From the NCBI GenBank assembly GCA_016190245.1, contig JACPQY010000085.1, positions 35,095-99,094 on the forward strand: DNA of 64,000 nucleotides. The letters are read 5' to 3'. The position numbers were made by a program, and so were the translations under genes. The DNA comes from Nitrospirota bacterium. GTDB taxonomy: Bacteria > JACPQY01. Below, one piece after another: positions 1 to 41,797 of this stretch. The notes under the pieces were generated by a model, which had not been told where the DNA came from, did not search any database, and was given only the letters and a program-made list of their open reading frames with translations. Position 1 is the stretch's first letter. The number at the start of each line of letters is the position of its first letter.

Positions 1-774
1 CGCGTTGATTCGGACCCGTTCGGATGACAGATCGCCGTCGGCCAGCCCCAGCGCGACGCAGCCCTTCATGGGGATCGAGAATCCGTTCGGGGTCACCCAG
101 TTGTCCATCACGACCATCTCCACCGGGAAGGCCGATTGCGCGCCTCCGGCCGCTGGATAGGCGGACACGCCGTTGAGCGTGCGCACTTTCACCACGCTGC
201 CGGCCGGCAGGTAGTGGGGTGAGGATGGCGCGCCTCGCAGTCCCAATGCTCCGTCGGCCCTCGGCTTCTCCTCCCTGGGTGGCGGCACCTGAATCATCTC
301 GATTGGAGGGATGTCGGAGGCCCGGGCGCCCGGTCGTCGACCTGCTTCCTCACCCCCCGCGCCGGCCGCCCGGACTGCCTCGACTACGCGCCCTTGGAGG
401 GCGGCCTGGCCGACCTGTATCTCATTGAGCTGCGCGGCAAAGCCTTGAAGAATCTCTGCCTTGGTCTTGTCCGACTTCTCAAGCGCCTGGAGGCGGCCAT
501 CAAGCCGCTTTCCCTCCTCGACTCGTTTCTCGATGTCCTGCCGGATCTTCTCGATCGCAAGACCGGTCGAGAACTCACCCATCTGGATGGGCGACTCATC
601 CCGCGTCTTCGTGACCGTCCGCCCAGCCGGGGCCTCGGTCAGGCGCGATCCTGTGTCTGCCGGCTTCTCCGACCGAAGCCACACGTACAGGACCAGTGCC
701 AGAATCAGGATGGCCGACACACCAACTATTTTTCGTTGCCTTGGAATGCTCTGCAACCGTTCACGCCAGCTCAT
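1..774 (-). CDS. traB: F-type conjugative pilus assembly protein TraB (VirB10-like), 3'-truncated by window edge
   Basis: Not in the ORF track because it has no stop in the window. My translation from ATG 774 (ATGA overlap with the traK stop): MSWRERLQSIPRQRKIVGVSAILILALVLYVWL (one TM), a coiled coil, then HYLPAGSVVKV..NGVSA..FPV..PNGF..MKGCVALGLADGDLSSERVRI, the characteristic TraB C-terminal motif. Confidence 0.85.
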   Translation of the reverse strand, partial: MSWRERLQSIPRQRKIVGVSAILILALVLYVWLRSEKPADTGSRLTEAPAGRTVTKTRDESPIQMGEFSTGLAIEKIRQDIEKRVEEGKRLDGRLQALEKSDKTKAEILQGFAAQLNEIQVGQAALQGRVVEAVRAAGAGGEEAGRRPGARASDIPPIEMIQVPPPREEKPRADGALGLRGAPSSPHYLPAGSVVKVRTLNGVSAYPAAGGAQSAFPVEMVVMDNWVTPNGFSIPMKGCVALGLADGDLSSERVRINA

Positions 775-1607
775 GGTTTCACCTCCCCACCCCCGGTCTC
801 GAACATCATGCGATCCACCACGAGATACCCCATCGTCTTCCTGGGCATCCCCTTGAAGGCCTCGATGGTCTCCGCCGGTTCCCTCGGCGCCAGGTGCTTG
901 TCCGTTATGGAGCCCAGAACCATGCCCCGGTAGTGCCACCCCTCAGGCGTCACGAGTTGCGGCTCGTTCGAGAGGTTTTCAATCTCGAGCACGAAGCCGC
1001 GGTTAGTCGGTCCCTCGTAGACACGCCTCGCGCGGTAGCGGATCACGTGGGGCTCCTCGAAAATGATCTTTCCGCCTCCGTCTTGAATCTCATAGCCGGG
1101 CACCGGTTGTTCCAACTTCATCGCGCCGAGAAGCATCAGCGCCTCCATCGGAGGCGTGATCGTTTGCGGCACCGGGGCCTGGAAGGTCTCGGGGACGAGG
1201 TGGACGGCGTCGTCTTCTCTCTGACCCTCCGTGGTCTCCAGAAGCTCCACCATGTAGGTCTGTCCTTTACTGTCGAACAGAAACAGCCGGTAGCGCTCGA
1301 ACGACAAGAGCGGCTTGATCAAGATGCCGTCCGGCGCCCGCAGGATCGAGAACGTCCTGCTGTCAGGATTGGAGAAGTTGCCCATCGGCCCCGGCAGTAC
1401 GATCTGTGTGGTTTGGGCCAGTGTGAGATAGACGATGACCGGACGACCGGGGGCCCATGGGACAGCCCGTCCCGCGTGGGCCGGTTGTGGACTCGCCAGC
1501 CCGAGCCCGATCACGATCGCGGCAACGCACATCGGCCGGAACGTGATGAGTGGTACGTGGTGAGTGATAGCAAACCAAACACTCTTGCATGTGACCGAAG
1601 CCTTCAT
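771..1607 (-). CDS. traK: F-type T4SS secretin-like protein TraK (VirB9-like)
   Basis: Signal peptide ending AHA; C-terminal GFVLEIENLSNEPQLV..LAP..T.GYLV resembles the TraK C-terminus; directly upstream of and coupled to traB; RBS-like AAGGGGG before ATG 1607. Confidence 0.65.
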   Translation of the reverse strand: MKASVTCKSVWFAITHHVPLITFRPMCVAAIVIGLGLASPQPAHAGRAVPWAPGRPVIVYLTLAQTTQIVLPGPMGNFSNPDSRTFSILRAPDGILIKPLLSFERYRLFLFDSKGQTYMVELLETTEGQREDDAVHLVPETFQAPVPQTITPPMEALMLLGAMKLEQPVPGYEIQDGGGKIIFEEPHVIRYRARRVYEGPTNRGFVLEIENLSNEPQLVTPEGWHYRGMVLGSITDKHLAPREPAETIEAFKGMPRKTMGYLVVDRMMFETGGGEVKP

Positions 1608-1720
1608 CTTGGTCCCCCTTTCCTTGTCCGCCTTTCTCCACGGATGCAGCCCCTTGTGTGGCCTCGCCGTCGCATCGCTCTTGTTGATGTCTAGATTGAG
1701 AATGGAGTCGCACCCGGCAG

Positions 1721-1791
1721 GAGATTGCTTCGTCGAAGACTTCTCGCAATGACGGCCGAGGGTGTCATTGCGAGCGACGCGAAGCAATCTC
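1721..1791. repeat. Imperfect long palindrome (GAGATTGCTTCG..CTCGCAATGAC / GTCATTGCGAG..GAAGCAATCTC), REP/RPE-like
   Basis: Two inverted half-units read directly; one half-unit recurs at 16037-16064. Confidence 0.8.
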
Positions 1792-1876
1792 ATGAGTCCA
1801 CTATCAATCCAGACCTCAATATCTTGATCCACTTGATCCATGTCTTCCCCCTCTTTCGCTCATCACACACCACCCT

Positions 1877-3031
1877 TCACGCCGCCATCCGCTTGTTGAA
1901 ATACACGAGCCCGAAGCCCAGCAAGAGGATACAGAATCCCCGGTAGGCCCACGTGTCCCGGCCGATTTCCGCTTTCTTGGCCATGCACCCATTGTACAGT
2001 TCGGCATAGGCCCAGTCGGTCGCGTTTGCTTGGACAAAGTAGCCGGCGAATGAGTGGAGGGGATGAAGGTTCGCGTCGGTATCGGCCGCCGTCAGCCCGC
2101 CGATACATCCCTGGTCCGCCTGATGGGCCCGGTAGGCGTACCATGTGAGACCGCGTGCCGCAGCCACGGCCACCACGTAGAGGACCACGTTGACCAGGCC
2201 GGCCGGAAGCTGAACCAAGGCCGGCATGGCCACAAACGCCGCGGTGACCCGTCCGGTGTTCTCCCCCACCAGCCTCGCAGCCCAACCCGCGTCATGTTCA
2301 TCCTCGACCGGGGCGGTAGCCTCCAACAGGCCCCGGATTTCCTCCGGCGCCAGGCCCACCCCCCCCTCCTGAGCCGAGACCACCCCACGGGCGACCTCGC
2401 GCGCCGTGGCCCTCCTGACCGCATAGCGAGACCGCGACCCCTTCCAGGTGGTCACGTCGGTTTCGATTTGCGTGGCGTGAGCGGCGCAGGTCGTGCTCAC
2501 ACTCCCAACCTCAATCGAGCGATTCGCAAGATTCGCCTTGGCCGTGGTTTCGTCTCCCTCCATCAACTTCTCAAGAACCGAACCCACGATGCACTCGCTC
2601 CCGAACTGACGCGCCGCGGCGGCCTCGGCCGCATCGAGGACCGACTCGAAGTCTTCCGTCACCTTGGCCGCCAGGGGAAACTGAGTGGCGGGGGCGGTGA
2701 ACCCGGAGGCCTTCTTCAGGTCCCAGTCGTGAATGAGTCCCGTCGGGATATCAGCCAATGGCCGCACCACGGCCTCGAAGAGCGTCGAGGGATACCCTGT
2801 GCCCGACTTCTCCGCGCTCACGGCCACGGCCCAACCCAGGAGAATCTGGACCATCGCCAGGCCACCCATGAGCTGGCGCCCCTCACCGATCCTGCGGACG
2901 CCCCATAGGAACATCCCGATGCTTGTGAGCGCCGCCACGGCCAGGATGGCCCCATGAACCAAGTATTGGGCCACGAAATCCAGCCACGGCTGGATGAGCG
3001 CCGCCTCGAGGGTGAACGTGGTCCGGAACAT
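1877..3031 (-). CDS. Membrane protein, possibly TraG_N/VirB6-like
   Basis: 384 aa with N- and C-terminal hydrophobic helices; follows the TraU-like and TraH-like genes as traG does in F-type order; no diagnostic motif recognised. Confidence 0.4.
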   Translation of the reverse strand: MFRTTFTLEAALIQPWLDFVAQYLVHGAILAVAALTSIGMFLWGVRRIGEGRQLMGGLAMVQILLGWAVAVSAEKSGTGYPSTLFEAVVRPLADIPTGLIHDWDLKKASGFTAPATQFPLAAKVTEDFESVLDAAEAAAARQFGSECIVGSVLEKLMEGDETTAKANLANRSIEVGSVSTTCAAHATQIETDVTTWKGSRSRYAVRRATAREVARGVVSAQEGGVGLAPEEIRGLLEATAPVEDEHDAGWAARLVGENTGRVTAAFVAMPALVQLPAGLVNVVLYVVAVAAARGLTWYAYRAHQADQGCIGGLTAADTDANLHPLHSFAGYFVQANATDWAYAELYNGCMAKKAEIGRDTWAYRGFCILLLGFGLVYFNKRMAA

Positions 3032-3194: not shown

Positions 3195-4445
3195 TCAGAA
3201 CGGTCCCTTGTAGTTGAAGATCAGCTTCGCCACCGCCTCGAGGCGCTCGCGCAGCAACTGGAGGATCCACGCCTGCACGTCCGCATACGTGCTCTTCTTG
3301 ACCTTCTGGTCCTCGATCCATGCCTCCAGATCCACCCGCAGCCGCTCCCGCATCCGCCAGATCTGTTCGAGCATGATCGGCTGGATCCCGGCGCGCGCCT
3401 GGACGAAGCCCACCAGCGAAACCACAATCCGCGCCTCCCGCTGAACCGCCTCCGCCGCGAGGGCCCCGCGGAGCTTGGGACATTTGACCGTATCCTTGTG
3501 GGCCTCGTGGTAGACGACGGTGTCAATCGGGATGGGCTGGAGGTCGGGCAGATCCGTGCGCCATTGATACTGAGGCGGCGCAGGAAAGATCCCGCAGTCG
3601 GACCCCATGATCGTGTCCAGCACGCTGCCGCCCTCTTGAAGATTCTCAAGCCGCCCGTATAAGCCCTGGAAGTAGTAGGTGGGATTGTTGTTGGAATCGG
3701 GATAGTAGTCGGCGTTCTCGCCTTCGAGGATCAAGTGCGACACCATCCGGCCGTCTTCGAGCCTGCTGTCGCCCAAGTAGTTCCACACGAGGCCCCGGTA
3801 GGTGTCGTTCGTGAACAGCCTCGTCACCACCGAATCGTAGGCCGTGCCCGAACCCGTGGCACTCGGCAGTCCTGTCATCTCCTCGACAAACGGCTTGCCG
3901 CTGGTCGCATCTCTCCACTTGGGGTCCTTGTAGGCCTCCACGCACTTGGCAAAGATGTCCGGGTGATAGGCGGTGTAGTCGATGCCCCCCACCGTCACCC
4001 CTCTCCCCACGCACGTCGCGATCGCGTCGTACGCCGCGCGGTCGGAGACCAGCGTCGCATTCCCCGCGTGCGTCTCGATCGTCCGCCTCTGGAAGCCGTA
4101 GAGTTGGAAGTAGAGCGCCGCGACCGCCGGGAGCACATGCTCCATTCCGGGATTCTTGGTGATCAGGGATTGGGTATACGTGGCGGGGGGAGACTTCTCG
4201 ATCTCAAGCAAGACATCATATAGGAGTGCGCCCAGATCCACGTTCCCAGCAAAACCCTTGAGATCGGGCGGTGCGATCACGGCATAGGGAACCTGCTGCG
4301 ATGGCACGTTCGTCTTGTCGCGCCAGTTGTCGGTCAAATCCCCCTCGGAAGGCGGCCAGACAACTTGCTGCGCCTTCGCCTGCCCCCAACCCGCCAGTGT
4401 AGACGCAAGAACCGCCGCTGTGATGATTCCGTTGTTCAGTCGCAT
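3195..4445 (-). CDS. Secreted protein, possibly TraH-like (ICE PFL_4711-type)
   Basis: Signal peptide (AKA); segment PPATYTQSLITKNPGMEHVL resembles the P..iqranPglydlL motif of TraH-equivalent ICE proteins; overlaps the end of the TraU-like gene. Start could be 4472. Confidence 0.4.
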   Translation of the reverse strand: MRLNNGIITAAVLASTLAGWGQAKAQQVVWPPSEGDLTDNWRDKTNVPSQQVPYAVIAPPDLKGFAGNVDLGALLYDVLLEIEKSPPATYTQSLITKNPGMEHVLPAVAALYFQLYGFQRRTIETHAGNATLVSDRAAYDAIATCVGRGVTVGGIDYTAYHPDIFAKCVEAYKDPKWRDATSGKPFVEEMTGLPSATGSGTAYDSVVTRLFTNDTYRGLVWNYLGDSRLEDGRMVSHLILEGENADYYPDSNNNPTYYFQGLYGRLENLQEGGSVLDTIMGSDCGIFPAPPQYQWRTDLPDLQPIPIDTVVYHEAHKDTVKCPKLRGALAAEAVQREARIVVSLVGFVQARAGIQPIMLEQIWRMRERLRVDLEAWIEDQKVKKSTYADVQAWILQLLRERLEAVAKLIFNYKGPF

Positions 4446-7400
4446 ACGATCTTGTCCATCCTTTCTTTCCATTCGGGACTCTTGGCCGAGAACTTGGCCT
4501 TGACTTCCTCGCAGGCCTGGCGGCTGCCCTCCGCACGTTTGCCCGCCCGCTGCTTCCGGGTGGCCTCAGCGTCTTTCTTGGCCTCGTCCAACGCTTTCAT
4601 GTAGGGCGAATTGGGATCGGTGAGCTGCTGGTGTGTCGGACCGGGATCGGTCGGCTTGCCCATGCCGTAGCCCTGGCGCTTGAGGTATTCTTCCTTTGCC
4701 TTTCGCTCCAGTACGTCTCGGGCCTGATCCACGTTGCCCTGTGCGTCGTCGATCTCTTTCTGCCGCGGCTCCACCTTCTTGCGCACGTAGCGCCCCTCCG
4801 CGGCAGCCGCCTCCTCGGCCCTCGACACGCCCCCAGCCCGAACCTCCTCGCGGGCTACCTGCAACGTGCCGGAGGAGGCACCCGATCTCATGCGGGCCAC
4901 CGCCTCCAGAAGCTGAAGGAACTCCCACACCTCCGCACCCGTCGCCACCGTCCCCTTGAACACAGGCCCCGTGAACGAGGAGGACAGGGTCTCGAAGTCG
5001 GCGGCCATCGTCCCAAAGTCGCCCGATACCCCTTCCAACTCAGCCAAGAGGTTCCCCTGCCCCGCCGCCTTGCCCTTGCCCACCAACCCCTCCAAGGCAT
5101 CGGCCGCCTTGCCCAGAGCGTCGTGAATCGGGTTCAATGCGGCATACAACGTCCCCTTGGAAAACTTCCCCATCGCGTCGGACACTCGGATGAGGCCATC
5201 CGATGCCGTCCGCAAAGTCCCCTCGATGCCCGGCGGAGCGTCACGAAGTCCCCGCGCCCGATTCGCCATCACACCCAACCGGTCGCCCATCTGACGCAGG
5301 GCTACCGGCGAGAGAAAGGCCGCGGCGTACACCCGGTCTGCAAAGTCCCGGTCGAGATTGCGCAGCTTGTCAGGCAAGCTCCCCAATCCCACCGAGACAG
5401 CCTGCGAGGCACTCCCCACGCTCGCCTTCCGTCCCCCCGCCTTCTTCATCGCCCCCTGCGCGTCGGTCAACCACTTCTCGAACTCCACCTTCACCTCCGC
5501 AAATGCGATGAGCGCCTCCATCACCTCCTCGGGACTGCCGATGCTCGTGATGTCTCCTGCCTCCCGGAGCTTCCTCATCAACTTCTCCCCCCGATGCGTG
5601 AGCGCCCCCATGTCCTCCCACAACCCCTTGGGGACGCCCGTGCCCGGCGAGAAGAGCGCCTTCACGTCCACCTCCACGGGCTTCACCAAGTCCTTCACAA
5701 AGTCGGGACCCACCGCGTCGCGCAAGGCCAATGCCCGCGCGCGAATCCCCTGTCCCGTCAAGCCCGCCGCGGCGATGGAAGACTGCAACCCCTGGACCTC
5801 ATTCTGCCACCACTGAAGTTCGAGAGCCGGGAGTCGAGAGGCGGGAGCCGACAGGGACGACAGGATCCCGCTCAACATCGCCGAAGGATCGCCCAGCCTC
5901 CCCAAGTCCCCCGCCAGCGTCACAACGGGACTGACCTCGCCCAACTTCACATCCCCAAACTTGCGGATGAGGTCCGCCGTGTCGCGCGGGGGATTGGAAA
6001 TGAGGCGAACCGCGGCGCATGCGTAGTCGGCGTACGTGAGGTACCCCTCCAGCTTCGCGAGCCGCCGGTGCAGAAGATCCAGCTTCGTGTGTACGGTCTG
6101 CACGGGGGCGTGGACGGGCATGATGGTGCAGGCCTGCTCGGCCATGTGGGATAGCGGCGGCTTGAGGAGCACGGGAGGAATCCGTGACTCCACGGCCGCG
6201 ATCTTCGTCTTGACCAGGGAAGCACCGGGAATGTCTCCCGTCCCCATCCCGCAGGCCGAGAGGCCCGTGAGCGTCTTGCCGGCCTCGAGCGCGTGCCGCC
6301 CGATGTCCACCGCGCACTCGACGTCGTACACCCCGCTCTCCACGTCCGGATCGACCTGAAAGTGGGTCATCAACCCCTTCATGGCCGCATGAATCACCGT
6401 GGGACCGGTCTGCCCCGCCGCCTGCCTCACGATGGGCTCGATCTGCTGGAAGAGGCGGAGATACTGCTGCAACACCGCCACCATGGCGTGGATCTTCTCC
6501 TCGATCTTCTTCGCGAAATCGAGGACTTCCTTGGCGGATTGGTAAAGATTGCGGATCTGCTTGATGGCGTTGGAGATCGTGTAGACGTAGTCGGCAATGA
6601 TGGCCGGTCCAGCCGTCCCCAGTGATCCCGCTTCGGCACCAAGGTCCTGTGAAAGGCGCACAAAGAACCATGCCGTGTTCTTGAGATAGGTGTTCAGATC
6701 AAAAAGACACATCCGCTGGTGCTGATAGATTACGAAGAGGGCGCCCTCGCTCACGTTTCCCGTCCAATACTCCTGGCGATCCCATTGCTTCGGGTCGTAC
6801 CCGATCGGCACACACGAGTTCCAAGTTGCTCCGCCCGCGCCGGTGTGCACAAGCTGAATTGAAAGCCCATCCTGCTCATTCCAAGGGATGGAAAGCACAT
6901 CCGGGTCCAGCGGATCCAACTCATCCGCGCCCCGCCCGTCAATCCAACACCCGCCCCCGCTCGATGCTGCAAGCGGCGCCTCCCAGACACCCAGGCTGGC
7001 CCCGGCAAGCGCAAGTCTCCCCATCCCAAATCTCGGGTCGGCGTGTTTCAGCCGACCGGAACGCTCATGCAGGTTTCCCCAAGGGAGCAAACCGGGCTGG
7101 TTTACACCCTCCCAAAAGCGCACCGTATCTGCCGGATCACGAAAGATTGTGAATGTGGGCACGTGCTTCTTGAAACCGGGCAGCCACGATTTCTTGCAAC
7201 TGACGTCGGAGCAAACCTTCACTCCAAGCGCCTCCCCACACACCTCACACGTTGGCGTGCCCTTCTTGATCTTCTGCTCGCGCATGGGCAAGCCACCCTT
7301 CCAGCGGAAGAGGTCGAATTCCGAGAGATAGCAGACACTTGGCGAGGCCCATGCGTCTTTCCACGAAAGATTCATGTAGGCACCATGGGTTGCCAAACCC

Positions 7401-7972
7401 TTCACGATCTCGTCAATGACGTCCTTCACCATCGCCCCCACATCGAATGCCAGCCGGTACACGTGCACCTCGGGACGTTCAACGCCGGCGTCCAACCGCA
7501 CGCCGAGCGGACGAACGAAGGGTTCGACCAACTGCTCAATCTGACCAAGAACGGGCTGAATCACGCGTTGCCCAACATCAGGGAAGAGGAGGCTTTGCCA
7601 GCGGGTGGGCACAACCTCCACCACGTAATAGGGGATGTTGTAGTCAAGATAGATCCCGAAGCATGGGTTGGGGTCGCCATCGAACGCAGTTGAGACAGCA
7701 GCGGCAGCAGCAGTCCCGACCGGGCCTGATGTAATGGCACCCATCGCTGTTCCGAACTCCACCCCGTCGAACTTGGGCTTGATCCCACACGCCCCGCCAA
7801 AGTCCAACGACTCCGTGATGATGCGCCACATCGCATCGCCAGAGATCGGCTGTGCTCTGGCCATTCGCGCCTGAACAGCCACAAGAACGAGGAGAAGACA
7901 AACTACATGCAGACCTCGGCGGGGCTTGGGCGCGTAGCTCATTGCTCTCCGGCTTCCCAGAGTAAGCCTCAT
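4436..7972 (-). CDS. TraU-like N-terminal domain fused to a long helical/coiled-coil C-terminal rod (about 1180 aa)
   Basis: TraU-type motifs YNIPYYVVEVV, RPEVHVYRL, CYLSEFDLFRW, PWGNLHERSG in the first ~330 aa; ATG 7972 overlaps the upstream lipoprotein stop (ATGA). Confidence 0.65.
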   Translation of the reverse strand: MRLTLGSRRAMSYAPKPRRGLHVVCLLLVLVAVQARMARAQPISGDAMWRIITESLDFGGACGIKPKFDGVEFGTAMGAITSGPVGTAAAAAVSTAFDGDPNPCFGIYLDYNIPYYVVEVVPTRWQSLLFPDVGQRVIQPVLGQIEQLVEPFVRPLGVRLDAGVERPEVHVYRLAFDVGAMVKDVIDEIVKGLATHGAYMNLSWKDAWASPSVCYLSEFDLFRWKGGLPMREQKIKKGTPTCEVCGEALGVKVCSDVSCKKSWLPGFKKHVPTFTIFRDPADTVRFWEGVNQPGLLPWGNLHERSGRLKHADPRFGMGRLALAGASLGVWEAPLAASSGGGCWIDGRGADELDPLDPDVLSIPWNEQDGLSIQLVHTGAGGATWNSCVPIGYDPKQWDRQEYWTGNVSEGALFVIYQHQRMCLFDLNTYLKNTAWFFVRLSQDLGAEAGSLGTAGPAIIADYVYTISNAIKQIRNLYQSAKEVLDFAKKIEEKIHAMVAVLQQYLRLFQQIEPIVRQAAGQTGPTVIHAAMKGLMTHFQVDPDVESGVYDVECAVDIGRHALEAGKTLTGLSACGMGTGDIPGASLVKTKIAAVESRIPPVLLKPPLSHMAEQACTIMPVHAPVQTVHTKLDLLHRRLAKLEGYLTYADYACAAVRLISNPPRDTADLIRKFGDVKLGEVSPVVTLAGDLGRLGDPSAMLSGILSSLSAPASRLPALELQWWQNEVQGLQSSIAAAGLTGQGIRARALALRDAVGPDFVKDLVKPVEVDVKALFSPGTGVPKGLWEDMGALTHRGEKLMRKLREAGDITSIGSPEEVMEALIAFAEVKVEFEKWLTDAQGAMKKAGGRKASVGSASQAVSVGLGSLPDKLRNLDRDFADRVYAAAFLSPVALRQMGDRLGVMANRARGLRDAPPGIEGTLRTASDGLIRVSDAMGKFSKGTLYAALNPIHDALGKAADALEGLVGKGKAAGQGNLLAELEGVSGDFGTMAADFETLSSSFTGPVFKGTVATGAEVWEFLQLLEAVARMRSGASSGTLQVAREEVRAGGVSRAEEAAAAEGRYVRKKVEPRQKEIDDAQGNVDQARDVLERKAKEEYLKRQGYGMGKPTDPGPTHQQLTDPNSPYMKALDEAKKDAEATRKQRAGKRAEGSRQACEEVKAKFSAKSPEWKERMDKIVCD

Positions 7973-8481
7973 GGCGACCTTAGAGAAGCATAGTAGATTG
8001 CAAGACACTTGAAATCCTTGTGACCTGGGTCAACCAGTTCTGCGCATTCCGAAACACTAGTCAGATTCAACGAGATGTCTTCTTTGAAGAAAAGAGCACA
8101 CACCTCCTGATCGGTTCTGAAATTCAGCGCCTCGCTGCATCCTTCGACAGTGGGTACCAATCGGGGGATGCACTCAGCTACCTCAGGAGGGCCCGCCTTC
8201 AGCAGCCGAGCTCCTTGTGAAACAAGATCTGCCAGAGAAGCCTTGCATTCCTCCAACGTCTCGTTCCTACGTTGGAGTCCTTCAGGTTTGCAGGCGGCAG
8301 CCGCGGAGCATCGCCTATCCGCGACTTGCAGATTCGCCACTGTCCACCGCTCCCACAGTTCGTCCTTTGACGCCCCGCCTCCCCCATCCCCGCCCTCGTC
8401 CCCGCCGCAGCCCGGGAGCGTGAACAGTGACAAGTAAACGGTGAGCAGCAAGACCGTGAGATTCCGACAGATTCGATTCAT
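7969..8481 (-). CDS. 8-Cys lipoprotein, paralog L1
   Basis: Lipobox-like LPGC followed by a Gly-rich tether and CSAAAAC..TLEEC pattern; 8 Cys after the lipid Cys; visibly lower GC than flanks. Confidence 0.75.
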   Translation of the reverse strand: MNRICRNLTVLLLTVYLSLFTLPGCGGDEGGDGGGGASKDELWERWTVANLQVADRRCSAAAACKPEGLQRRNETLEECKASLADLVSQGARLLKAGPPEVAECIPRLVPTVEGCSEALNFRTDQEVCALFFKEDISLNLTSVSECAELVDPGHKDFKCLAIYYASLRSP

Positions 8482-9642: not shown

Positions 9643-9704
9643 AAATCCGAAATCGCGAATCGAGAATCGGAAGACAAACGGGCAGGACGAGCCCACCCCA
9701 CTCG

Positions 9705-9911
9705 GCGCGGGCCGTATTTCGGAAACCCCTCTTTTCCTACTCATGGGCATTCCCCCTCGGAATGCCCGCACTCGCGCGCCTTTGGCTCGCCCTCCGTGGG
9801 CTCGCCGGGGGCGCGAGTACTGGGCCGTCCTGGCCCGCACTCGGCCCCTGCTTCGGCCGCCCTTCCTTGGGTCGGCCTGGGTGGCCGAGTACTGGGCCTT
9901 CGTGGCCCGCT
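9705..9911. repeat. REP-like hairpin cluster beside the RAYT (GGCATTCC-N5-GGAATGCC; GTACTGGGCC-N5-GGCCCGC x2)
   Basis: Hairpins read directly; homologous block at about 43260-43410; further GTAC-hairpin copy at about 18293. Confidence 0.7.
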
Positions 9912-10495: not shown

Positions 10496-10512
10496 CGGCG
10501 CACCAACTCCCC

Positions 10513-11749: not shown

Positions 11750-11905
11750 CTCAGGCTCCTTTCGTGAGTTCGTGAAGCGTGAAGGGTGATGAGTGATGAG
11801 AACTGGGCTTTGGCGCGCTTCACGCCGCCTAACACTTTGGATAAGCTTAACTCTCCGCATTCCTCGTCAAGCCCATCCACAAAGGGACTTGAACGAAATT
11901 CGGGA

Positions 11906-17183: not shown

Positions 17184-18395
17184 TCACTTGTCCGGCTCCT
17201 TCAGAAACTTCGGGAGGGGCGGAGGGGGGCAGGGACGATTCTCCGGGGTGCCGTCCCACCGGAGAAGCCCCATGCGCATGAGTTTCCGGTCCACCACCTC
17301 CATCGACGATTCCGGCATGGGGACTTCGATGCCGGCTTTTTCGAGGGCATACCGCCAGGAGCCGAAATGCCGGCGGGCCGCGGCCACCAACCCAGGCCTG
17401 ATCTTTAGCGCGTGGCTTACGACGAGACTGCCCGCGTCCGCGACATAGGCACGTACACGCGCGAGCACTTCTTCATCGGAGAGACGCAGGTGAGTCGCCA
17501 TCCCGTCGTAAGGCACGCCGACGGCTTCAAGCGCCGCACGCCACGAGCTGAAATGCTCGCAGGCCTTCGAGTAGAGCTTCCGGTCCTGCCTGAAGACGTC
17601 GTACGGGCGCACACTCAGACCCGCTCCTTTTCGCGCCTCGATGGCCTGCAAGACCTGCTCCCGGGTCCACCGCCGCCGGGCGCGGCACTTTTCAGCGTCT
17701 AGATCGGCCGCCCTGAGCGCCTCCGACCACGACCCGAATCGTCTGACGGCACGGTGATAGAGGGAGTCCCATTCCAAGCGGACGCCGTTAGAGTTGAGCG
17801 GCAGGCCTGCTGCGATCCTTTCGTGGATCATCTTGACAATGGCCGCTCGGCGTTCCTGCCTCCGGTACGGATGCGGAGCGCGGCTGAGTCCTGCCGCCTG
17901 GAGGGCGTACCGATAGCAGCCGAAGTACCGCCGCACGGCTCTGGACAGGGGCGGGTCCTTACGGACGAGGTGGTACGGGACGAAGTCGCCCCCGCCCACG
18001 AGGTCTCGGAGGGCCTCGATGACACGCTCGCGGTTCCAGCGATTGAATCCTTGGCCTCGGGGGGGCGACTGTGGCGGGGCGACGGGACTCCTCACCCCAG
18101 CCCTCCCCGGCTGTCCAGTCCGCCACGGCGGACGGACGGGCAGGTCCTCTTCGAGGAGAGGGGACGGATGCTGCCCGTGCTGGGGCCCGACGGGATCGGC
18201 GTTGAAAAGGCCGGAGGGGGAGGCGCTCCGATCCACCGGTGGCAGGACCATGGCTCGCCCTCTCCGCCACGGCGGACTCGCCTCGTTCCGCCGGTACAGG
18301 GCCTTCGTGGCCCGCACCGGTGGACCGGATGGTTGGGACAGCGACGAAACAGACCGGAGGCCGTCGCGCCTCCCGTTTCCTGCAGTTTCAGTCAT
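17184..18395 (-). CDS. Protein with four homing-endonuclease-associated (HNH_repeat-like) helical repeats, no nuclease domain
   Basis: Four ~52-aa repeats ending (Y/R/H)F(G/S)(C/S)(Y/W)..AL..AG(L/V/I); ATGA overlap with traE; N-terminal ~100 aa derived from DNA repeats, so the start is uncertain. Confidence 0.7.
   Translation of the reverse strand: MTETAGNGRRDGLRSVSSLSQPSGPPVRATKALYRRNEASPPWRRGRAMVLPPVDRSASPSGLFNADPVGPQHGQHPSPLLEEDLPVRPPWRTGQPGRAGVRSPVAPPQSPPRGQGFNRWNRERVIEALRDLVGGGDFVPYHLVRKDPPLSRAVRRYFGCYRYALQAAGLSRAPHPYRRQERRAAIVKMIHERIAAGLPLNSNGVRLEWDSLYHRAVRRFGSWSEALRAADLDAEKCRARRRWTREQVLQAIEARKGAGLSVRPYDVFRQDRKLYSKACEHFSSWRAALEAVGVPYDGMATHLRLSDEEVLARVRAYVADAGSLVVSHALKIRPGLVAAARRHFGSWRYALEKAGIEVPMPESSMEVVDRKLMRMGLLRWDGTPENRPCPPPPLPKFLKEPDK
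18088..18163. repeat. 76-bp palindrome-containing element (core GTCCGCCACGGCGGAC), second copy at 30373-30448
   Basis: Near-identical copies, both inside ORF 5' ends; a related inverted variant at 58311-58355. Confidence 0.85.
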
Positions 18396-19069
18396 GGTGG
18401 GCCCGCGCTCGTTTCCACCTGCCCCCCTGTCTGGATCGCGCCCTGGTTCACTTTCACAACGGCGACCGCGCGCGGCGCCGCTGGCGTGGGCGCCCGGCGG
18501 CGAAGTTCGACTTCGTAGAAGTAGGGACCGGTCCAGACCGGCTTCGTGCCCACGTACATCTCCCGCAACCCTTCCAAGCGGACGAGGTAGCGATCGCCTT
18601 TTTGCGAGACGATCCGGCCCTCGCCCACGTGAAACACTTCCGAGATCTGATTGCGCCGGATGTCCTCGAGGCGGTCCGAGACACGAACGTCGAACTCGGC
18701 AAGGACGACCTTGTCCATCATCGCGCGCACCGCTGCGAACGCCTTGTCCGCTGTGGAGTAGTTCCAGTTTGCGAAGGAGAGGATGAAGGACTTGGCGGTA
18801 TCCTCGATGTACTCGGTCGGCACCTCGCCCGGGCGGAACACGCCGCCTTCGGAGGCACCGGGGACAACCAATACCGGTCGCGGCCGCGCGGCGAGGTAGA
18901 TCAGGCCCACAAAGAGCAGGCCCGCGAGGGCCGTGACGGAGACGGCATAGAGTCGCACGACGTTGTAGCGGGCTTCGGCTTCGCCCCAGACTTCCCAGAA
19001 TTTCGGCAGTCGGGAGTCGGCAGTCGGGAGTCGAGGGACGGGAGTCGGGTGGCGATCACTAGCGGACAT
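18392..19069 (-). CDS. traE: F-type T4SS protein TraE (VirB8-like)
   Basis: One N-terminal TM then VLVVPG..EYIEDTAKSFILSFANW; downstream of traL; SD GGAGG. Confidence 0.7.
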   Translation of the reverse strand: MSASDRHPTPVPRLPTADSRLPKFWEVWGEAEARYNVVRLYAVSVTALAGLLFVGLIYLAARPRPVLVVPGASEGGVFRPGEVPTEYIEDTAKSFILSFANWNYSTADKAFAAVRAMMDKVVLAEFDVRVSDRLEDIRRNQISEVFHVGEGRIVSQKGDRYLVRLEGLREMYVGTKPVWTGPYFYEVELRRRAPTPAAPRAVAVVKVNQGAIQTGGQVETSAGPP

Positions 19070-19595
19070 GCCCACCTCCCTCCGGCCCAGCCGGGCTTGA
19101 CCATGGAGCGTTTGCGGAGCGATTAGGCATCGTCTGCCCGGGCGAAGCCGCCGTTCGAAGGATCGCCTGGATGAGGCGGGTCAACATCCTTCCGACATCG
19201 TCCATGAGCGGCTCCATCTGAGGATCGAGCGTGTAGCCGAGGTCCCGGACCAGATCGGACAGCGTGTCCACCTCGCTCAAGGATGCGCGCGACATCCGAA
19301 GAAACCGGACGTACTCCTTGGCAGAACCTCGGGCGGCGCCCTCGGCGATGTTGCACGCTACGCTGACCGCGGCCCTCTGCATCTGAGAGGCCAGACCGTA
19401 TCGCTCGTGCACCGGCCAAGTACGCGTGCAGTGGTAGGCCCTGCGCGCCAAGGCCATCGACTTTTGCCAGACATCCAGCTCCTTGTGGGGTTTCCATGCC
19501 CCTTTCTTTCCGACCTCCAGCTCGGAAACGATCTTTCGGGATTGGGTCTTGGCGACTCCCGACTGCCGAATGCCGACTGTCGCCTCGCGGCTCAC
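19059..19595 (-). CDS. Four-helix-bundle protein (IVS-encoded/Avd-like family)
   Basis: HKELDVWQKSM..WPVHERYGLASQMQRAAVSVACNIAEG..FL..SRASLSEVDT; GTG 19595 overlaps the traL stop; flanked by heptamer repeats. Confidence 0.88.
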   Translation of the reverse strand: MSREATVGIRQSGVAKTQSRKIVSELEVGKKGAWKPHKELDVWQKSMALARRAYHCTRTWPVHERYGLASQMQRAAVSVACNIAEGAARGSAKEYVRFLRMSRASLSEVDTLSDLVRDLGYTLDPQMEPLMDDVGRMLTRLIQAILRTAASPGQTMPNRSANAPWSSPAGPEGGGHVR

Positions 19596-19864
19596 GAGGA
19601 ATACCTCCACCGCCCCCTCTGCGGCTTGGGCCAGCCTTTGACGGGAAGGCCCTTGCGGTAGAGGAAGTGGACGAGGTAGCCCGGCGGTTTGCCCCTCTTG
19701 AGCCTCTTGATGGCGATGACCGCGGCGAGGCCGCCGATGACGGCAAGGACAGCGGAACCCAGCACGAGGTTGACGATCCCCATGGCGGCGGGCAGAACGG
19801 CCCACTCCTCGGGCTCGAGACCGAGGACGGTGATGGGCTTGTCAATGTTCTGGTGGACTCTCAT
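19592..19864 (-). CDS. traL: F-type T4SS protein TraL (VirB3-like)
   Basis: QNIDKPITVLGLEPEE..two TMs..KRGKPPGYLVHFLYRKG matches the TraL signature. Confidence 0.8.
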   Translation of the reverse strand: MRVHQNIDKPITVLGLEPEEWAVLPAAMGIVNLVLGSAVLAVIGGLAAVIAIKRLKRGKPPGYLVHFLYRKGLPVKGWPKPQRGRWRYSS

Positions 19865-20160
19865 CGGACGGTGAACCCGTGAGCCCGGGAACCCGGGAAC
19901 CCGAGAGCCCGGGAACCCCGAAGGCAGCAAGATGCGAGAGCGGGGAACCGGGGAGCTCGGGAGCCCGAGAGCAGGGCAAGAAACCCGGTCCTCCGGGAAC
20001 CGAGAACAGCGTAGGCGGGGAAAGGCGTCATGTGGCCACGACCTCCCGAGCTACCGGCCTCATGCACCGATCCCGCCTTGGCCTTGGCTCACGGAAGCAG
20101 CCGCGGACCGGCCGGCGCATCCGGGGGGTGGAATGGGTGCTCAGTCTGCGCATGGGCGAC

Positions 20161-36334: not shown

Positions 36335-37663
36335 CTACCTCCCTCGCCCCCTGATGTGCCCAAGCTGTTGTTCGTCCCACTCGTTGGCCACCTCGGCCAG
36401 CCGCTGCAACCGCTCCGAATAGCCCGCCACCGTCAGCCCCGTGCTCGCTTCCAACCCCTGCCGCATGGCCCGGATGCGGGGGAGGGCCGCACGCAGGTAG
36501 GGCTCAAGCATCGGGAACATCGGATCGCCGCCGTACCCCAGTTCCCACCCGGCCGTCCGCGCCTCGGCATCCGCAAGCTGGGCCTCGATTCCACCGAGCG
36601 TCTGGAGCGCCTCCCCCACGGCCACGAACGTGGCCAAGGATTCCACCCCCTCACATCGCGTCGGCGTTCTGGACGCGTCCCACAGCACATTCCCACACTC
36701 CTTCATGTAGAGCTTGAACACACTGAAGGGCACGCCCAGTTTCTTGAGCACCGTCGAGAACTCCTTGTTGTCGGGAATGTTGCCGGGCGTGTTGGGGATA
36801 CCGGCCGAGAGGACCGGCAAGCCATCCGAGGCCTCCAGGATCTGGTAGGCGAGCGGCTTCGGATCGCTGGGATTTCCCGACCACTTCAGTTGCGCCTCGA
36901 CCACGTCGTAAGTGGTCTTCGCTGGACTCGACACCACCACGCCATTCGTTGCCACCCAGTTCCCCGCCTCCACGTCGCCCAGGAGATCCCACGACGGCGA
37001 ATCCACACCGGCGCCGCTGAGAACCGTCGAGAGCTTGAGCGGGGGCACAGCCACACCCTTGTTGGCGACCTCCATCGCATCCTTGGGATTCTCGATGCAA
37101 TCCTCCTGGTCACCGCCGAAACGCATACAGGTGGCCAACAGAAGACTGGAGATATCGGGCGCCCCATCACCGCCTCCGCCAGACCCAGCCAAAGTTGAAA
37201 GCGCCTGCGTCGTGGCCCCCTGAGACAGATCTCCAAGCTGCCCCTGCTGCATGGCCTTGGTAAGGAGGTCCCCAACAGATGGGAGGGCTGCCGTCATTGT
37301 CAGTTGGGTCAGGAAAATCCGCGACGTCGGCAGACTAAGGAGCGTGTCTTTCACCTTCGACTTGCCGTCCTCCGCCCACTTTTTCCCCAACTTCCCGGTC
37401 CGTTCCTTCATCATCCGGCCTACTCCTCGATCCAACGGTTGGACGGTCGTGGCCGCTGGAGAGCCGGCTCCGGCCTGCCCACCTGCCGGCGTGGCCGTCC
37501 CTGCCTGCGGCTGCCCCGCAGCCGGGGCCGGGCCGGTGCTCTGCACCTGCTTGGGCTTCTTGATTCCCCGCATGACCTGTTCCGTTTCCGCCGCGCGGGC
37601 GGTGGAGCCGAGCAGGCCGATCACAAGCGCACTGCCCATCCCGATGATGATTGCCTTTCGCAT
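36335..37663 (-). CDS. Secreted protein, possibly second TraH-like protein
   Basis: Signal peptide ARA; LPTSRIFLTQLTMTAALPSVGDLL weakly resembles the TraH helix; follows the second TraU-like gene. Confidence 0.3.
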   Translation of the reverse strand: MRKAIIIGMGSALVIGLLGSTARAAETEQVMRGIKKPKQVQSTGPAPAAGQPQAGTATPAGGQAGAGSPAATTVQPLDRGVGRMMKERTGKLGKKWAEDGKSKVKDTLLSLPTSRIFLTQLTMTAALPSVGDLLTKAMQQGQLGDLSQGATTQALSTLAGSGGGGDGAPDISSLLLATCMRFGGDQEDCIENPKDAMEVANKGVAVPPLKLSTVLSGAGVDSPSWDLLGDVEAGNWVATNGVVVSSPAKTTYDVVEAQLKWSGNPSDPKPLAYQILEASDGLPVLSAGIPNTPGNIPDNKEFSTVLKKLGVPFSVFKLYMKECGNVLWDASRTPTRCEGVESLATFVAVGEALQTLGGIEAQLADAEARTAGWELGYGGDPMFPMLEPYLRAALPRIRAMRQGLEASTGLTVAGYSERLQRLAEVANEWDEQQLGHIRGRGR

Positions 37664-37683: not shown

Positions 37684-37745
37684 TTAGTGTGTCCATCATG
37701 TCATCATATATATCTATGCCATATGATATCAATGTCAATATCCCT
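37684..37745 (-). promoter_or_regulatory. AT-rich promoter/operator island
   Basis: TTGACA (37733-38) and TTGATA-N18-TATGAT on minus; inverted ATCATAT..ATATGAT. Confidence 0.55.
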
Positions 37746-40700
37746 ATTGCCACACGCACATCGTGGGCGGCGTGGCCAGGAATTCAGCCGACCTCGAAGT
37801 GTTCGGTTCGTCCATCTTCGGACACTCGACCATGTTGGGTTGATCCGTGTTCGGATCCGTCCCAAGCTGATAGTGCGTCGGCGGGCTGCACTCCGCTCCG
37901 GGAGCGCAGGTGAGCTGGCATTGGGCAGGTACCCCACCTGCCGGTGGCGGTCCCGCGTCGGAATAAATCGGAACGGATTGGCCCGTCGCCGGGTCTCGAA
38001 ACGTACCGGGACAGCCGCCTCCCTTGCGGATGCCGCTGTCGGAGTCCTGGGCACTCGGGTCCGCCGAGTCGAACTTCTCGGGGTAGCCGGTACACGTGCA
38101 AATCTGCTTGTCACTCCCATCCGGCAGCCGGAACCACATGCACTTGCGCATCCGGATCTTGTGCGATCCGTTGCCGAACGCAGGATCCGTGTCCGTGCAA
38201 TAGGCCACCGAGCACCCGCCCAAGAAGGCCACGCGTTTCTTGGGATCCTTCAGGCCGGTCAGCATCCGGCGGTAGAGGTCATAGCTCGAGTACGGAATGC
38301 CGACTCCCCCCGCCACGTGCTGCATGTCCGTCGCGTTGGATCGCGAACATTCGACGAGCGAGGCATCGGCGTTCCAGTCCAAGGCAGGACAGCTCAACGG
38401 ATCGGCGGGGTCTCGCGGAGTCTTCTCGGTCGTGGAGCTGTCGCACAGGCCCTTGGGCTTGATGGACTCCTCCAGGGCCACCTTCTGAGCCGCATCCGTG
38501 ATGCCACATCCGAAAACCTTGTATGCGTCTGAATCCGTCTTCCCCGCGTCGGCCAGCCAGCCACACGCGTCCTTGGGCTCGGGATGGACGGCAGGGTCCG
38601 GGGGGACCGGCTTGGGCAGATTGCGGCCGCGCCTCTGCCGCTCTTCCCAAAGCCTGAGATCGTATTCGTATTGGGCCCATTTCTCCGCGGCGACCACTTC
38701 GGGAGCGGGATTGTTCTTCAGTTGCTCGTTGAGGTCATGTGCCTCCTTGGCCAAGTCCATTCCCTGACGAATCCCGTCCTGCACAGGCTGAGGCAGCGCG
38801 CTCATCGGCGCGCTGGACAGGATCGCCTTGCCCAAAGTCGATCCCGAACCACCCAAACGAATATCCTCGTACACCTTGTCCTCAACACATCGGGCGATCT
38901 CACCGGGGCGAGGCTTGCCGGTGGGGACGCAGCCCGCGAACGGCCCGGCAGGGGACTGCGCAGCCAACGTTTCCAACGCCTGATTGGCCAAGCCTGAAAA
39001 CAAGCCCACACCGGCATCCTTGTCCCTATAGCGTTCGCGATTGACCTGGCACTGGCGGATCACATCGCGCGCCTCCAAGTCCAATGGGAGGTGCTTGACC
39101 GCCACCCCGGCCAACGCCTGGCGAACATCGGGCCTGAGGGCACCGTAGAAACCCTGCCCACAGTGCACCGAAGCAAGCGGGGCGTCGCAAAGCCGGTCGC
39201 GGGCCACTCGATTCAGCGTGGAAACATCCTGCCCCAAGTATGGGGGATTCGTGTCCAAAATCCGGCCCTGACAGCCCTGCCAAGGGTCGGGCATGGGCGT
39301 CCACACGAGGGGACACCACGGCGGGCACCGGTCGAGGCACACGCCGTCGAGGGCCGTGAAATCCCCAGCCGTGGCCGGAAGGTGAGGGAAAAGGGCCGCC
39401 ACCTCGTCGGGCGGCCGATTGAACAGATCGCCCATCTCATCGATAGTCCACTTGCCCGCCTTCCGGTCCGATTCGGACCCCCCGAACAGATCGTCGCACG
39501 CCTCCGGCGCACCGTTGCGGATTGCGCAGTGCCCTGCGTCCTCCGGCGCGACGGGCGGGATTGCATTGAGATCGCCCGGGGCACACTTGACGCGAACGGC
39601 CCCGTGAATCTTGTCCGCCAGGACTTGGCTCCCGATGGTCTGGATCGTGCCGCCAAACCGGACCACGCTGATGACCGTGTTGAGATTGCGGAACACCTTC
39701 TCGATACTCCCACCGGGAAAGGCCTGCTGGCAGGCCGGAAGCGAGGGCGTTTGCGCCACATCCGCCTTCGCAACAACACCCACCAGATCGCTGATCTCAC
39801 CCAGGCATTCGACCGCGTGCTCGACCATCGCGATGGCTTGCCGAATCTGACTGTAGAGGGTGCGCAACTTGTTGACGACGTCGACGATCTTGGCGAGGAT
39901 GGAAGCCGCCTCAATCGCGGCCAGCGCGATCTCGCAGGTGGGGCCAGAGAATACTGTCGTTACACTGCATGTTGGCGCATATTTTGCAGCTTCCGCGGCT
40001 GCCATGTCCGATAGCGAGGTCATCAGGCACTGCTGCAGCTTGCTCGTATCGCCCGCCTCGGTCCAAACGATGAACCCATAGGAACTCTGCCTGGCAAACT
40101 TCGTCGGGTCGGTGCGACGCGCAGAGACACTGTACTCGGCAGGAATGGTGATCGTGATGTTGCCGTCGGCATCATTCTCGGGTGCAAAGCAGCCCGTCTT
40201 CTCCGGCCAGATCGCGTTGAATTGGTACTTTGACGGCTCGGCGAAAACATCACCATGCTCCACAAGCTTACCGCTCAGCGCCGTGGCTGCCCGAGAAAAA
40301 CCCCGCAGGGCCATCTGGAACGACGAAAGGAGCGGGTCCGTTGATGCGACCACGCCCTTGCGGGCATACTGTTGGATCGCCGTACTCCGTCCGACCGAGT
40401 CGTCCTCCCAAATCACCTTCTTGCCCAAACCCAGTCCTTCACCGAAGCTCAGATCGAACAACCCAGTGTTCCACTGGAACCAGTCCACCTCGGAGAAGTA
40501 GACGGGAAAGATGATCGGGGTGTCCTTCTGGGGCGGAAGATAGTCCGGGATCTTGTAGTTGTTCTCTACGAGCTGGAACATTTCAGGAAGCATCGCGTCC
40601 GCCGCATGGCAGATCAGGATCTGGAAGAGTTCCGAGACAAACTCGGGGTTGTTGTACTTCCACACGTGGACATCCCGGAACTGGATTCCACCTCCGCCGG

Positions 40701-41196: not shown

Positions 41197-41200
41197 CTGC

Positions 41201-41797
41201 TCACCTCGGCCTCTGCGGCGCAAACGCCCCGCCGAGGAATGCGGCCTTGCACTTGGGATCCTCGGGGCCATTTCTCATGATCTCTGCCGCAAGCTTGCAA
41301 GAAGGAATGTTCGCAGCGAGCTTGAACTCCTCTGTCACTCTCGCGTCGTCCGGACCATAGAAGCTACCCGTCACTTCCATGTACGGACAGAGGCTTGCGG
41401 CAGGGCTTGCGTCGACATCTGACACGCACTGTTCGTACGCCTCGATTGCTCTTCGGGAGATTGCTTCGAGGGACGTCGCAAGATTGGGGCACTCCCCGGC
41501 AATTGTCTTGTTGCCTTCCAGAGCCTCGCTCACGGCAACATTCTCAAAGGCGCGCAGACATTCCTCGGGCGTCCCATGGATTCTTACTAGGGGGGCCTCG
41601 GGTGCACACACAAATGCAACCTCGCATACTTCCTTTTTCAGGAATTTCATCGCCGCCTCGTCGAACCTTCTGACTTCGTCGCTTTTCGCGCCTCCGCTCT
41701 TCTCTTCTCCGCCGCATGCTGCAAGGGCGAGCGTGAGAAAGACGCCTCCCATTGCGAATCTCGCGCCGCCAAGCCTGAAATGAAGACGCCCGCGCAT
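41201..41797 (-). CDS. 8-Cys lipoprotein, paralog L2
   Basis: LAAC lipobox, CEVAFVC..TPEEC, 8 Cys after the lipid Cys. Confidence 0.75.
   Translation of the reverse strand: MRGRLHFRLGGARFAMGGVFLTLALAACGGEEKSGGAKSDEVRRFDEAAMKFLKKEVCEVAFVCAPEAPLVRIHGTPEECLRAFENVAVSEALEGNKTIAGECPNLATSLEAISRRAIEAYEQCVSDVDASPAASLCPYMEVTGSFYGPDDARVTEEFKLAANIPSCKLAAEIMRNGPEDPKCKAAFLGGAFAPQRPR

Follow-up and report, generated by a model that had tools for sequence, protein, structure and literature searches.

Diverged cassettes encoding TraU-like fusion proteins in a genome with an F-type-like type IV secretion system

The stretch of DNA analysed here, 64 kb long and called the window (contig JACPQY010000085.1 of assembly GCA_016190245.1, positions 35,095 to 99,094; G000:C79:35095-99094 in our labelling), belongs to a genome (G000) of 3.29 Mb in 86 contigs, with ~64% G+C, an estimated completeness of ~85% and a GTDB phylum of two species only. 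Two loci on its minus strand, termed module 1 and module 2, each encode one or two lipoproteins, a secreted protein of ~1,100 aa and a secreted protein of ~430 aa, which bears out the initial annotation of a two-locus module. The first ~350 residues of the two large proteins are a very distant homologue of TraU, a pilus-assembly protein of the F plasmid, and are followed by long extensions of two types, one helical (rod type) and one rich in cysteines (Cys type).

In module 1 the lipoprotein is P0005, the large protein P0001 and the partner protein P0003; in module 2 the lipoproteins are P0006 and P0007, the large protein P0002 and the partner P0004 (Table 1). Comparisons covered further contigs of the same genome (C29, C31, C48, C63, C71 and C84, with the window on C79), a sister genome (G001) with a locus carrying a rod-type cassette (L002) and a locus on contig G001:C20 (L007), and a locus of a third organism (L090). 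P0009 is the rod-type orthologue from G001, P0011 the paralogue on C71 and P0134 a Cys-type relative from another organism. The rod type thus comprises P0001, P0009 and the C63 and C29 copies, the Cys type P0002, P0011 and P0134. Hidden Markov models (HMMs) of F-type proteins were built for this analysis and searched against all open reading frames (ORFs) of G000.

Signal peptides or lipoboxes were recognised by inspection on all seven module proteins. As had been annotated, every lipoprotein at the two loci has a lipobox and a Gly-rich tether and, beyond the lipobox Cys, exactly 8 further Cys, again by inspection. BLAST places them in one family, with expect values (E) of 9e-7 for the 176-aa against the 198-aa protein and 2.6e-5 for the 198-aa against the 218-aa protein, and with matches recorded in the range of E 9e-7 to 3e-24. 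P0005 matches its G001 orthologue at E 3e-19 and its paralogue P0007 at E 9e-7. The homology of the large proteins P0001 and P0002 is limited to the N-terminal ~350 aa, where pairwise BLAST finds a single 35-aa match (E 5e-4). Homology of these two proteins by profile alignment was one of the points on which the initial annotation had been staked beforehand, and it was recovered: in hhalign the rod-type profile (P0008 and P0009) and the Cys-type one (P0010 and P0011) align over ~125 columns, with E 9e-7 and a probability of 91%. Shared motifs, given as rod type and Cys type, are FGIYLxYNxPYYxVEVVP and LGFxVxFxxPTYYIEV, EVHVYR and DVHVWKY, and CYLSEFDxFRWK and VYFSEVDWxQWN. An amphipathic helix had been described as common to both proteins; it does align at the equivalent position at the junction with the extension, but the alignment is not significant (hhalign E 0.14). 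Between the rod and Cys-rich extensions a single weak match was seen, collinear and confined to the middle parts (E 1.4e-3, 17% probability). No relation was detected between the partner proteins P0003 and P0004 (E 0.08 to 0.75). Two of the three gene families are therefore common to both modules, with the third slot filled by different families.

Table 1. Modules 1 and 2 and type IV secretion genes in the window (positions counted from the first nucleotide of the window)
Feature	Position	Strand	Basis or remark
TraB/VirB10-like N-terminal part, gene runs past window edge	1..939	-	F-type TraB HMM E 2.3e-24 on C79 34672-36036
TraK-like (VirB9-type) secretion system core protein	771..1841	-	Pfam TraK_C E 3.2e-6, 27.7 bits (cut-off 28.5); F-type TraK HMM E 1e-3
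384-aa polytopic membrane protein, possibly TraG-N/VirB6-like	1877..3031	-	Orthologues in G001 (E 5e-49) and L090 (E 1e-12)
Module 1: secreted partner P0003, 425 aa, rod-type partner family	3195..4472	-	Signal peptide
Module 1: large secreted protein P0001, rod type, 1,190-aa ORF	4436..8008	-	Likely start ATG 7972 or 7942, then Sec signal peptide
Module 1: TraU-homologous N-terminal domain of P0001	6701..7831	-	hhalign of family profile against TraU profile
Module 1: all-helical C-terminal extension (rod) of P0001, ~750 aa	4439..6700	-	AlphaFold2 secondary structure, PDB profile matches, invariant Cys
Module 1: 8-Cys lipoprotein P0005, 176 aa	7969..8481	-	ATG 8481; ORF extendable to 8499 from TTG; lipobox LPGC, Gly-rich tether, 8 Cys after lipobox
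TraE-like inner-membrane protein of the secretion system	18392..19075	-	Pfam TraE E 2.2e-9, above cut-off; F-type TraE HMM E 3e-6
TraL-like ORF (stop-to-stop range)	19595..20050	-	F-type TraL HMM E 1.1e-6 on C79 54689-55144
Module 2: secreted partner P0004, 442 aa, Cys-type partner family	36335..37663	-	L090 orthologue beside Cys-type fusion, 44% identity, E 2e-111
Module 2: large secreted protein P0002, Cys-rich type, 1,175-aa ORF	37744..41271	-	Likely start ATG 41196, just past P0007 stop
Module 2: Cys-rich C-terminal extension of P0002, ~755 aa	37747..40014	-	Helical middle part, Cys-dense last ~250 aa
Module 2: TraU-homologous N-terminal domain of P0002	40015..41070	-	hhalign link to rod-type N-domain E 9e-7
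Module 2: second 8-Cys lipoprotein P0007	41201..41797	-	BLAST links to P0005, G001 lipoprotein and 177-aa C63 lipoprotein
Module 2: 8-Cys lipoprotein P0006	41811..42467	-	BLAST to C71 paralogue E 2.6e-24, to P0007 E 2.6e-5

The relation to TraU was examined by profile-profile comparison. For TraU, 80 loci from genome contigs yielded a set of 24 sequences with every pair below 75% identity. The family profile held seven N-domains, those of the five large-protein paralogues of G000 (two on C79 and one each on C71, C63 and C29) together with P0009 and P0134; the eighth sequence of an enlarged version was a 592-aa relative from G001. Against TraU the seven-sequence profile reached 95.2% probability in hhalign, with E 2.9e-8 in local alignment over 178 columns and E 2.6e-11 in global alignment, and the eight-sequence profile reached E 5.5e-10 over 222 columns (TraU 79-329) and E 2.5e-12, respectively. 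The controls gave E 0.11-0.98 for 20 column-shuffled TraU alignments, 0.57 for the reversed alignment and 0.36 for a TraH profile, and among 17 F Tra family profiles TraU alone scored, with the runner-up at E 0.099. The rod subfamily taken alone matched TraU at E 4.3e-6, and adding the Cys-type sequences brought this to 2.9e-8. Since the profile-profile match is significant while the shuffled, reversed and other-family controls are not, chance similarity is ruled out and the N-domains are taken to be true, very distant TraU homologues that lie outside the curated family.

Pfam backs this conclusion independently. Pfam TraU (PF06834) is the sole Pfam match of the C63 paralogue N-domain (E 7.7e-4, HMM 252-304), and it ranks first for the 592-aa protein of G001 (E 8.8e-4, HMM 51-237); these two relatives score 19.4 and 19.2 bits, below the 26.5-bit cut-off. 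A whole-genome search of G000 with PF06834 gave zero matches, as did our TraU and TraH HMMs on the ORFs of this genome, and the similarity is visible by profile-profile comparison only. The low-diversity TraU profile made from Enterobacterales only gave no significant hhalign match to the family; the F TraU homologue search listed only relatives of at least 68% identity. The PDB holds no TraU structure. The shared TraU motifs of the initial annotation are real and collinear along the N-terminal ~350 aa, in the order (Y/F)WxP..(E/D)V, HVxxYK, YLSE(I/V)DP.W, the (F/I)W(C/E)xG region and C.P.G...W, with a further C-terminal motif of aromatic-G-hydrophobic-W...C. Together with the sub-threshold Pfam matches and the controlled profile comparison, they support the view that the large proteins are TraU fusions.

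The extensions that follow the TraU-like domain diverge as claimed, one being all-alpha with coiled-coil-like matches and the other Cys-rich. In the AlphaFold2 (AF2) prediction, of low to moderate confidence, the rod extension is entirely helical, with nothing but helix beyond the TraU domain (P0008 residue 379 onwards). Six Cys are invariant among the four rod homologues. The rod profile matched only coiled-coil or heptad-repeat chains and viral HR1 repeats in the PDB, which were taken as compositional. The P0002 ORF contains 36 Cys, ~30 of them within the extension and many invariant in the three-sequence alignment, and the Cys-type profile had zero matches in the PDB. Likeness of the Cys-rich extension to TraN and of the rod to VirB5/TrbJ had been suggested, and neither was recovered. 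The Cys-rich extension had no Pfam match to TraN at E <= 1, and TraN was outside its three best of 17 F profiles, the best being TraU with E 0.044, itself not significant. Among these 17 profiles (TraN, TraH and TraG included) nothing was significant for either extension type, with the rod at E 0.11 against TraN. P0001 and P0009 had only weak matches of coiled-coil type and no T4SS-related Pfam match (T4SS, type IV secretion system), with no dedicated VirB5 profile-profile test having been run.

The extensions had also been described as swapped. In the N-domain tree the sequences cluster according to the type of their extension (support 0.98-1.0), and N-domains and extensions therefore co-diverged, each type with its own partner family; swapping by recombination is ruled out by this tree. 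The rod and Cys types are old lineages. A third and short form exists in G001 (592 aa, L007 841-2619), in which the TraU-like domain carries a tail of only ~200 aa. Its gene lies directly downstream of a VirB4-like ATPase gene (PF19044 E 6.6e-20), and it may represent a stage between TraU as a stand-alone protein and the fusions of ~1,100 aa.

The third gene of each module co-varies with the extension. Genes of the P0003 family follow rod-type fusions on C79, on C63 (E 6e-12) and in G001 (E 2.7e-20), with a further copy on C31, and genes of the P0004 family follow Cys-type fusions on C79, in L090 and on C71, where a split copy continues on C48 across a contig break in a Gly run. The third gene had been called TraH-like. 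Neither partner has a Pfam or NCBIfam match (E <= 1 to 10), and against a 28-sequence TraH profile hhalign gave E 0.2 to 0.76 for the P0003 family and 0.09 to 0.32 for the P0004 family; a search of G000 with PF06122 (TraH) gave zero matches, and the PDB holds no TraH structure. A three-sequence profile of the P0003 family and a P0004 query were compared with the 17 F profiles, and enlarged four-sequence profiles of the partners with TraH and 12 others. Nothing was significant, the best result being P0003 family against TraC (E 0.004 over 41 columns), which was judged spurious. The TraH-like traits of the partner genes are confined to size, export and a place upstream of a membrane protein gene with weak likeness to TraG-N/VirB6 (hhalign against the TraG N-terminus E 1e-3, 21% probability), an order that echoes that of F, in which traH precedes traG. 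No relatives are known for the lipoproteins or for either partner family, and Pfam and NCBIfam searches with the seven module proteins gave no relevant match.

Module 1 is embedded in genes of an F-like T4SS. On C79 the F-type HMMs identified the TraC ATPase (E 6e-74), TraB (E 2.3e-24), TraL (E 1.1e-6), TraE (E 3e-6) and TraK (E 1e-3), the combination of a TraC-kind VirB4 ATPase with TraL, TraE, TraK and TraB by which F-type mating-pair formation (MPF-F) systems are recognised. A second TraK/TraB pair adjoins the C63 cassette. In G001 the gene order is lipoprotein, rod fusion, 394 aa, 378 aa, TraK_C and TrbI; in L090 it is lipoprotein, Cys-type fusion, P0004 orthologue, membrane protein, thioredoxin-like protein (Thioredoxin_2 E 7e-4), TraK_C, TrbI and a small lipoprotein. 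The TraK-like gene of the window has an equivalent position in L002 and L090, and the syntenic counterparts of its TraB/VirB10-like gene carry Pfam TrbI at both loci. The cassette therefore lies inside an F-like T4SS operon in three lineages. Because the G001 (rod) and L090 (Cys-type) orders correspond, both flavours occupy one operon slot, which supports the earlier view of the two forms as alternatives: the Cys-rich form in L090 takes the exact slot of the rod form in the window and the sister genome.

The F-type HMMs detected no TraW, TrbC, TraF, TraH, TraN, TraU or TraG in G000. Of the coupling protein families, PF02534 was absent from either genome of the phylum, and the matches to PF10412 were weak and spanned no more than 30-40 profile positions, one of them reaching the cut-off only when summed with neighbouring matches. 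The relaxase families PF08751, PF07514 and PF03432 (MOBF, MOBH and MOBP) gave nothing over the cut-off in both genomes, other relaxase families not having been searched, and phmmer with F TraD and TraI found nothing. As no coupling protein or relaxase was detected and nothing places the extensions at a pilus tip, the suggested role in mating-pair stabilisation or at the pilus tip is doubtful, and the F-type-derived machine is probably non-conjugative.

All five large-protein ORFs of G000 are intact and encode 1,096-1,237 aa. Their identities range from 16 to 58%, with Cys and motif positions conserved within each type. Aligned from end to end, P0001 and its full-length orthologue P0009 are 45% identical, as are P0002 and P0011; the best local match of the N-domains reaches 57% for the first pair and 50% for the second. 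P0134 is also related to P0002. In G001 no Cys-type copy was found. When 1.84 billion representative proteins were searched exhaustively with HMMER, only five reached E <= 0.001 (P0008-P0011 and P0134), so that the family amounts to about five clusters at 50% identity in this collection, and the fusions had no match among 72,556 plasmids. Since its few members come from organisms not in culture, the function of the family is deduced from context only.

In F, TraU is a Class II factor with 10 conserved Cys that has a part in both pilus production and transfer, and it is a member of the F-specific interaction group (bioRxiv 10.1101/2023.12.05.570194), and homologues have been reported in MPF-F and MPF-G, including integrative and conjugative elements of the MPF-G type (PMC4027160). 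The proteins described here resemble TraU (PF06834) in their collinear motifs, significant profile-profile match, signal peptides and genes located among TraL/E/K/B/C. They differ in that F TraU is a stand-alone protein of 330 aa, whereas the window proteins have ~1,110-1,130 aa after the signal peptide, with an extension of ~750 aa (~200 aa in the short G001 form). They also fall below every curated cut-off, do not conserve most of the 10 Cys of TraU, occur as five paralogues in one genome and lack detectable TraW, TrbC, TraF, TraH and TraN partners in G000. With the interaction group, listed as TraF/TraH/TraW/TraU/TrbC/TrbB/TraN (Harris and Silverman 2004, as cited in bioRxiv 10.1101/2023.12.05.570194), the cassettes share exported Cys-containing accessory proteins encoded alongside a TraK/TraB/TraV core and, in the L090 operon, a thioredoxin-like gene; the TraU domain aside, no cassette protein is detectably related to any member named in that list. 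Likeness to TraN (22 Cys) and to the helical pilus-tip proteins VirB5/TrbJ is one of composition only, a Cys-rich or long helical extension, with no sequence or profile similarity to the extensions found.

A comparable organisation exists in other T4SS. In the Trw system of Bartonella (copies of trwL and trwJ-I-H) and in the VirB6 and VirB2 families of Rickettsiales, one T4SS core is accompanied by multiple diverged peripheral paralogues and by repeated small cassettes with a lipoprotein, as in the present case. The families involved there are VirB5, VirB6 and VirB7, in contrast to a TraU fusion, a partner and an 8-Cys lipoprotein, and the copies described here are scattered over contigs and far more diverged, with no host-interaction role known.

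On balance, the loci seem best regarded as ancient paralogues, by now far apart in sequence, of a single accessory cassette of an F-type-like (MPF-F-like) T4SS or pilus machine, which is encoded in the chromosome in a candidate phylum of two species. Each cassette encodes one or two 8-Cys lipoproteins of the outer-membrane type, a Sec-exported protein of ~1,100 aa in which a distant TraU homologue of ~350 residues precedes a probably disulfide-rich extension of ~750 aa, and a secreted partner of ~430 aa. Two flavours, rod with a P0003-family partner and Cys with a P0004-family partner, fill one slot upstream of the TraG-N/VirB6-like protein, TraK and TraB. The TraU-like domain may attach the protein to the TraK/TraB/TraV core from the periplasm, as is supposed for F TraU, and extension, partner and lipoprotein could form a flavour-specific peripheral or outer module. 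Paralogues would then give the machine alternative versions of this module and vary what it binds or assembles, rather than stabilise mating pairs. The system is a new and very rare TraU-fusion variant of a known secretion machine; its mechanism, that is docking and alternative modules, we infer from synteny, co-variation and the reports on TraU in F.

Several observations weigh against this account. The Cys-type subfamily alone does not match TraU significantly (E 0.05), its link to TraU being transitive, and P0001, P0002 and their N-domains have no Pfam or NCBIfam match, so that the curated TraU thresholds are not reached by them. Just two of the 10 Cys of TraU align with P0001 (F TraU C294 and C327), and the C63 and C29 copies are without one or both of these. 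The AF2 model of the rod protein, from a four-sequence alignment, has a mean predicted local distance difference test (pLDDT) score of 43.6 with only two stretches at 70-86, and that of the Cys type, from a three-sequence alignment, has a mean of 30.8 and is unusable. The two Cys-type cassettes of G000 lie away from T4SS core genes and beside giant RCC1/Ig-repeat proteins, and might therefore work apart from the machine. As G000 is only ~85% complete, the absence of other components is provisional. Core docking, the location of the extensions and the functional interchangeability of the flavours would likewise have to be read as deductions.

Alternatively, the cassettes, or at least orphan ones such as module 2, could be T4SS-independent secreted or surface systems of an adhesin- or toxin-like kind, which would have kept a TraU-derived fold only as a scaffold and work with the giant RCC1/Ig-repeat proteins. 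Module 2 is indeed flanked by RCC1/Big proteins of 1,777 and 1,707 aa and by proteins of 1,003 and 913 aa, not by T4SS genes, and the C71 and C29 copies are likewise away from core genes. We nevertheless consider this alternative unlikely, since the orthologous Cys-type cassette of L090 is inside a TraK/TraB operon, the short G001 relative directly follows a VirB4-like ATPase gene, and Pfam and NCBIfam found no other secretion signal and no known adhesin or toxin domain in the fusions. A conjugative function, in which the cassettes are alternative pilus-tip or mating-pair-stabilisation modules with a TraH homologue as third gene and with TraN-like (Cys-rich) and VirB5/TrbJ-like (helical) extensions, is less probable still. 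It draws on the TraU-domain fusion, which is real, on a third gene that is secreted, TraH-sized and just upstream of a weakly TraG-N-like gene, as traH-traG in F, and on a Cys-richness common to TraN (22 Cys; bioRxiv 10.1101/2023.12.05.570194). Signals of TraH, TraN and VirB5 type are nonetheless absent from the Pfam and NCBIfam results, and those of TraH and TraN also from hhalign; a coupling protein and MOBF, MOBH or MOBP relaxases were not found in either genome of the phylum, and the family is absent from the 72,556 plasmids.

That the extra copies are redundant or decaying duplicates with no distinct role seems very improbable. Partial duplications do occur, as a near-identical copy of ~50 aa of the C63 rod lies upstream of the C63 cassette, but none of the five large ORFs is interrupted, members of each type keep their Cys and motif positions, and the paralogues are only 16-58% identical and have therefore been retained for a long time. 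A more elaborate form of the accessory-cassette account, which we hold to be rather speculative, is that of a lineage-specific and non-conjugative descendant of an F-type T4SS, in which TraW, TrbC, TraF, TraH and TraN were replaced by exchangeable three-gene cassettes, of which the cell would keep several for refitting the outer or target-contacting portion of a single machine, with highly conserved 5' regions and leaders promoting co-regulation or recombination between cassettes.

TraU is among the least understood F-specific T4SS factors, and the literature consulted knows it only as a small protein that stands alone in MPF-F and MPF-G systems. Here the TraU domain would be the N-terminal anchor of proteins of ~1,100 aa, with at least three types of extension and five copies in a 3.3-Mb genome, and the host machine is F-like and seems to be without DNA-transfer components. 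If the extensions are alternative outer modules, they would represent a natural experiment on what TraU connects to and an example of an F-type apparatus re-purposed outside conjugation.

Around module 2, two giant paralogous proteins of 1,777 and 1,707 aa (25158-30491 and 44763-49886, minus strand) combine bacterial immunoglobulin (Ig) domains with RCC1 beta-propeller repeats. They are accompanied by a 225-aa RCC1 fragment at 50563-51240 and then by a 1,005-aa FG-GAP protein at 51704-54721. Directly upstream of module 1, within the T4SS-like array, the minus-strand gene at 8596-9612 encodes a fusion of an IS200-like Y1 transposase domain with a DnaA C-terminal helix-turn-helix (Pfam E 8e-13 and 4e-6). 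A gene of the 23S_rRNA_IVP family (four-helix bundle) lies beside the T4SS-like genes in all three lineages (window 19059-19805, L002 10297-10854, L090 11336-11695), and an HNH_repeat protein at 17184-18395 lies between TraE and the rest of the cluster. An Rfam scan of the whole window gave zero matches.

Just upstream of the C63 cassette, an ORF fragment (G000:C63 99498-99947) repeats ~50 residues of the C63 rod near-identically (...LDLACTGVKLIKNPPRNF.DLAGAFVQVPTPNHPDLKRVQDVLGTIETLR...) and is either a partial duplicate or a pseudogene remnant. A second, unrelated type of lipoprotein is encoded directly upstream of the C63 and C29 rod-type fusions (G000:C63 97915-98529 and G000:C29 124574-125797), the two sharing a C-terminal Cys motif of ~75 aa (E 4.6e-10). 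The C63 protein and the 8-Cys lipoprotein next to it have leaders of 66% identity but different mature parts.

The 5' DNA of the two Cys-type cassettes is also conserved. Window 42348-43474, which covers the region upstream of P0006 and its first ~120 nt, and G000:C71 67194-69142 are upstream regions of ~1.1 kb with DNA blocks 81-96% identical, the 96% identity spanning the ribosome-binding site and the part coding for signal peptide and lipobox. The P0006 and C71 lipoproteins themselves share, in contrast, only ~42% amino-acid identity over the region aligned by BLAST. The difference points to common regulation of the two cassettes or to gene conversion at their 5' ends. The upstream blocks of the Cys type recur in shorter form ahead of module 1 (window ~9680-12966 and 18252-18319), as well as on C31 and C84, and window 12585-12966 and 44331-44729, one upstream of each module, are DNA copies of 72-74% identity.

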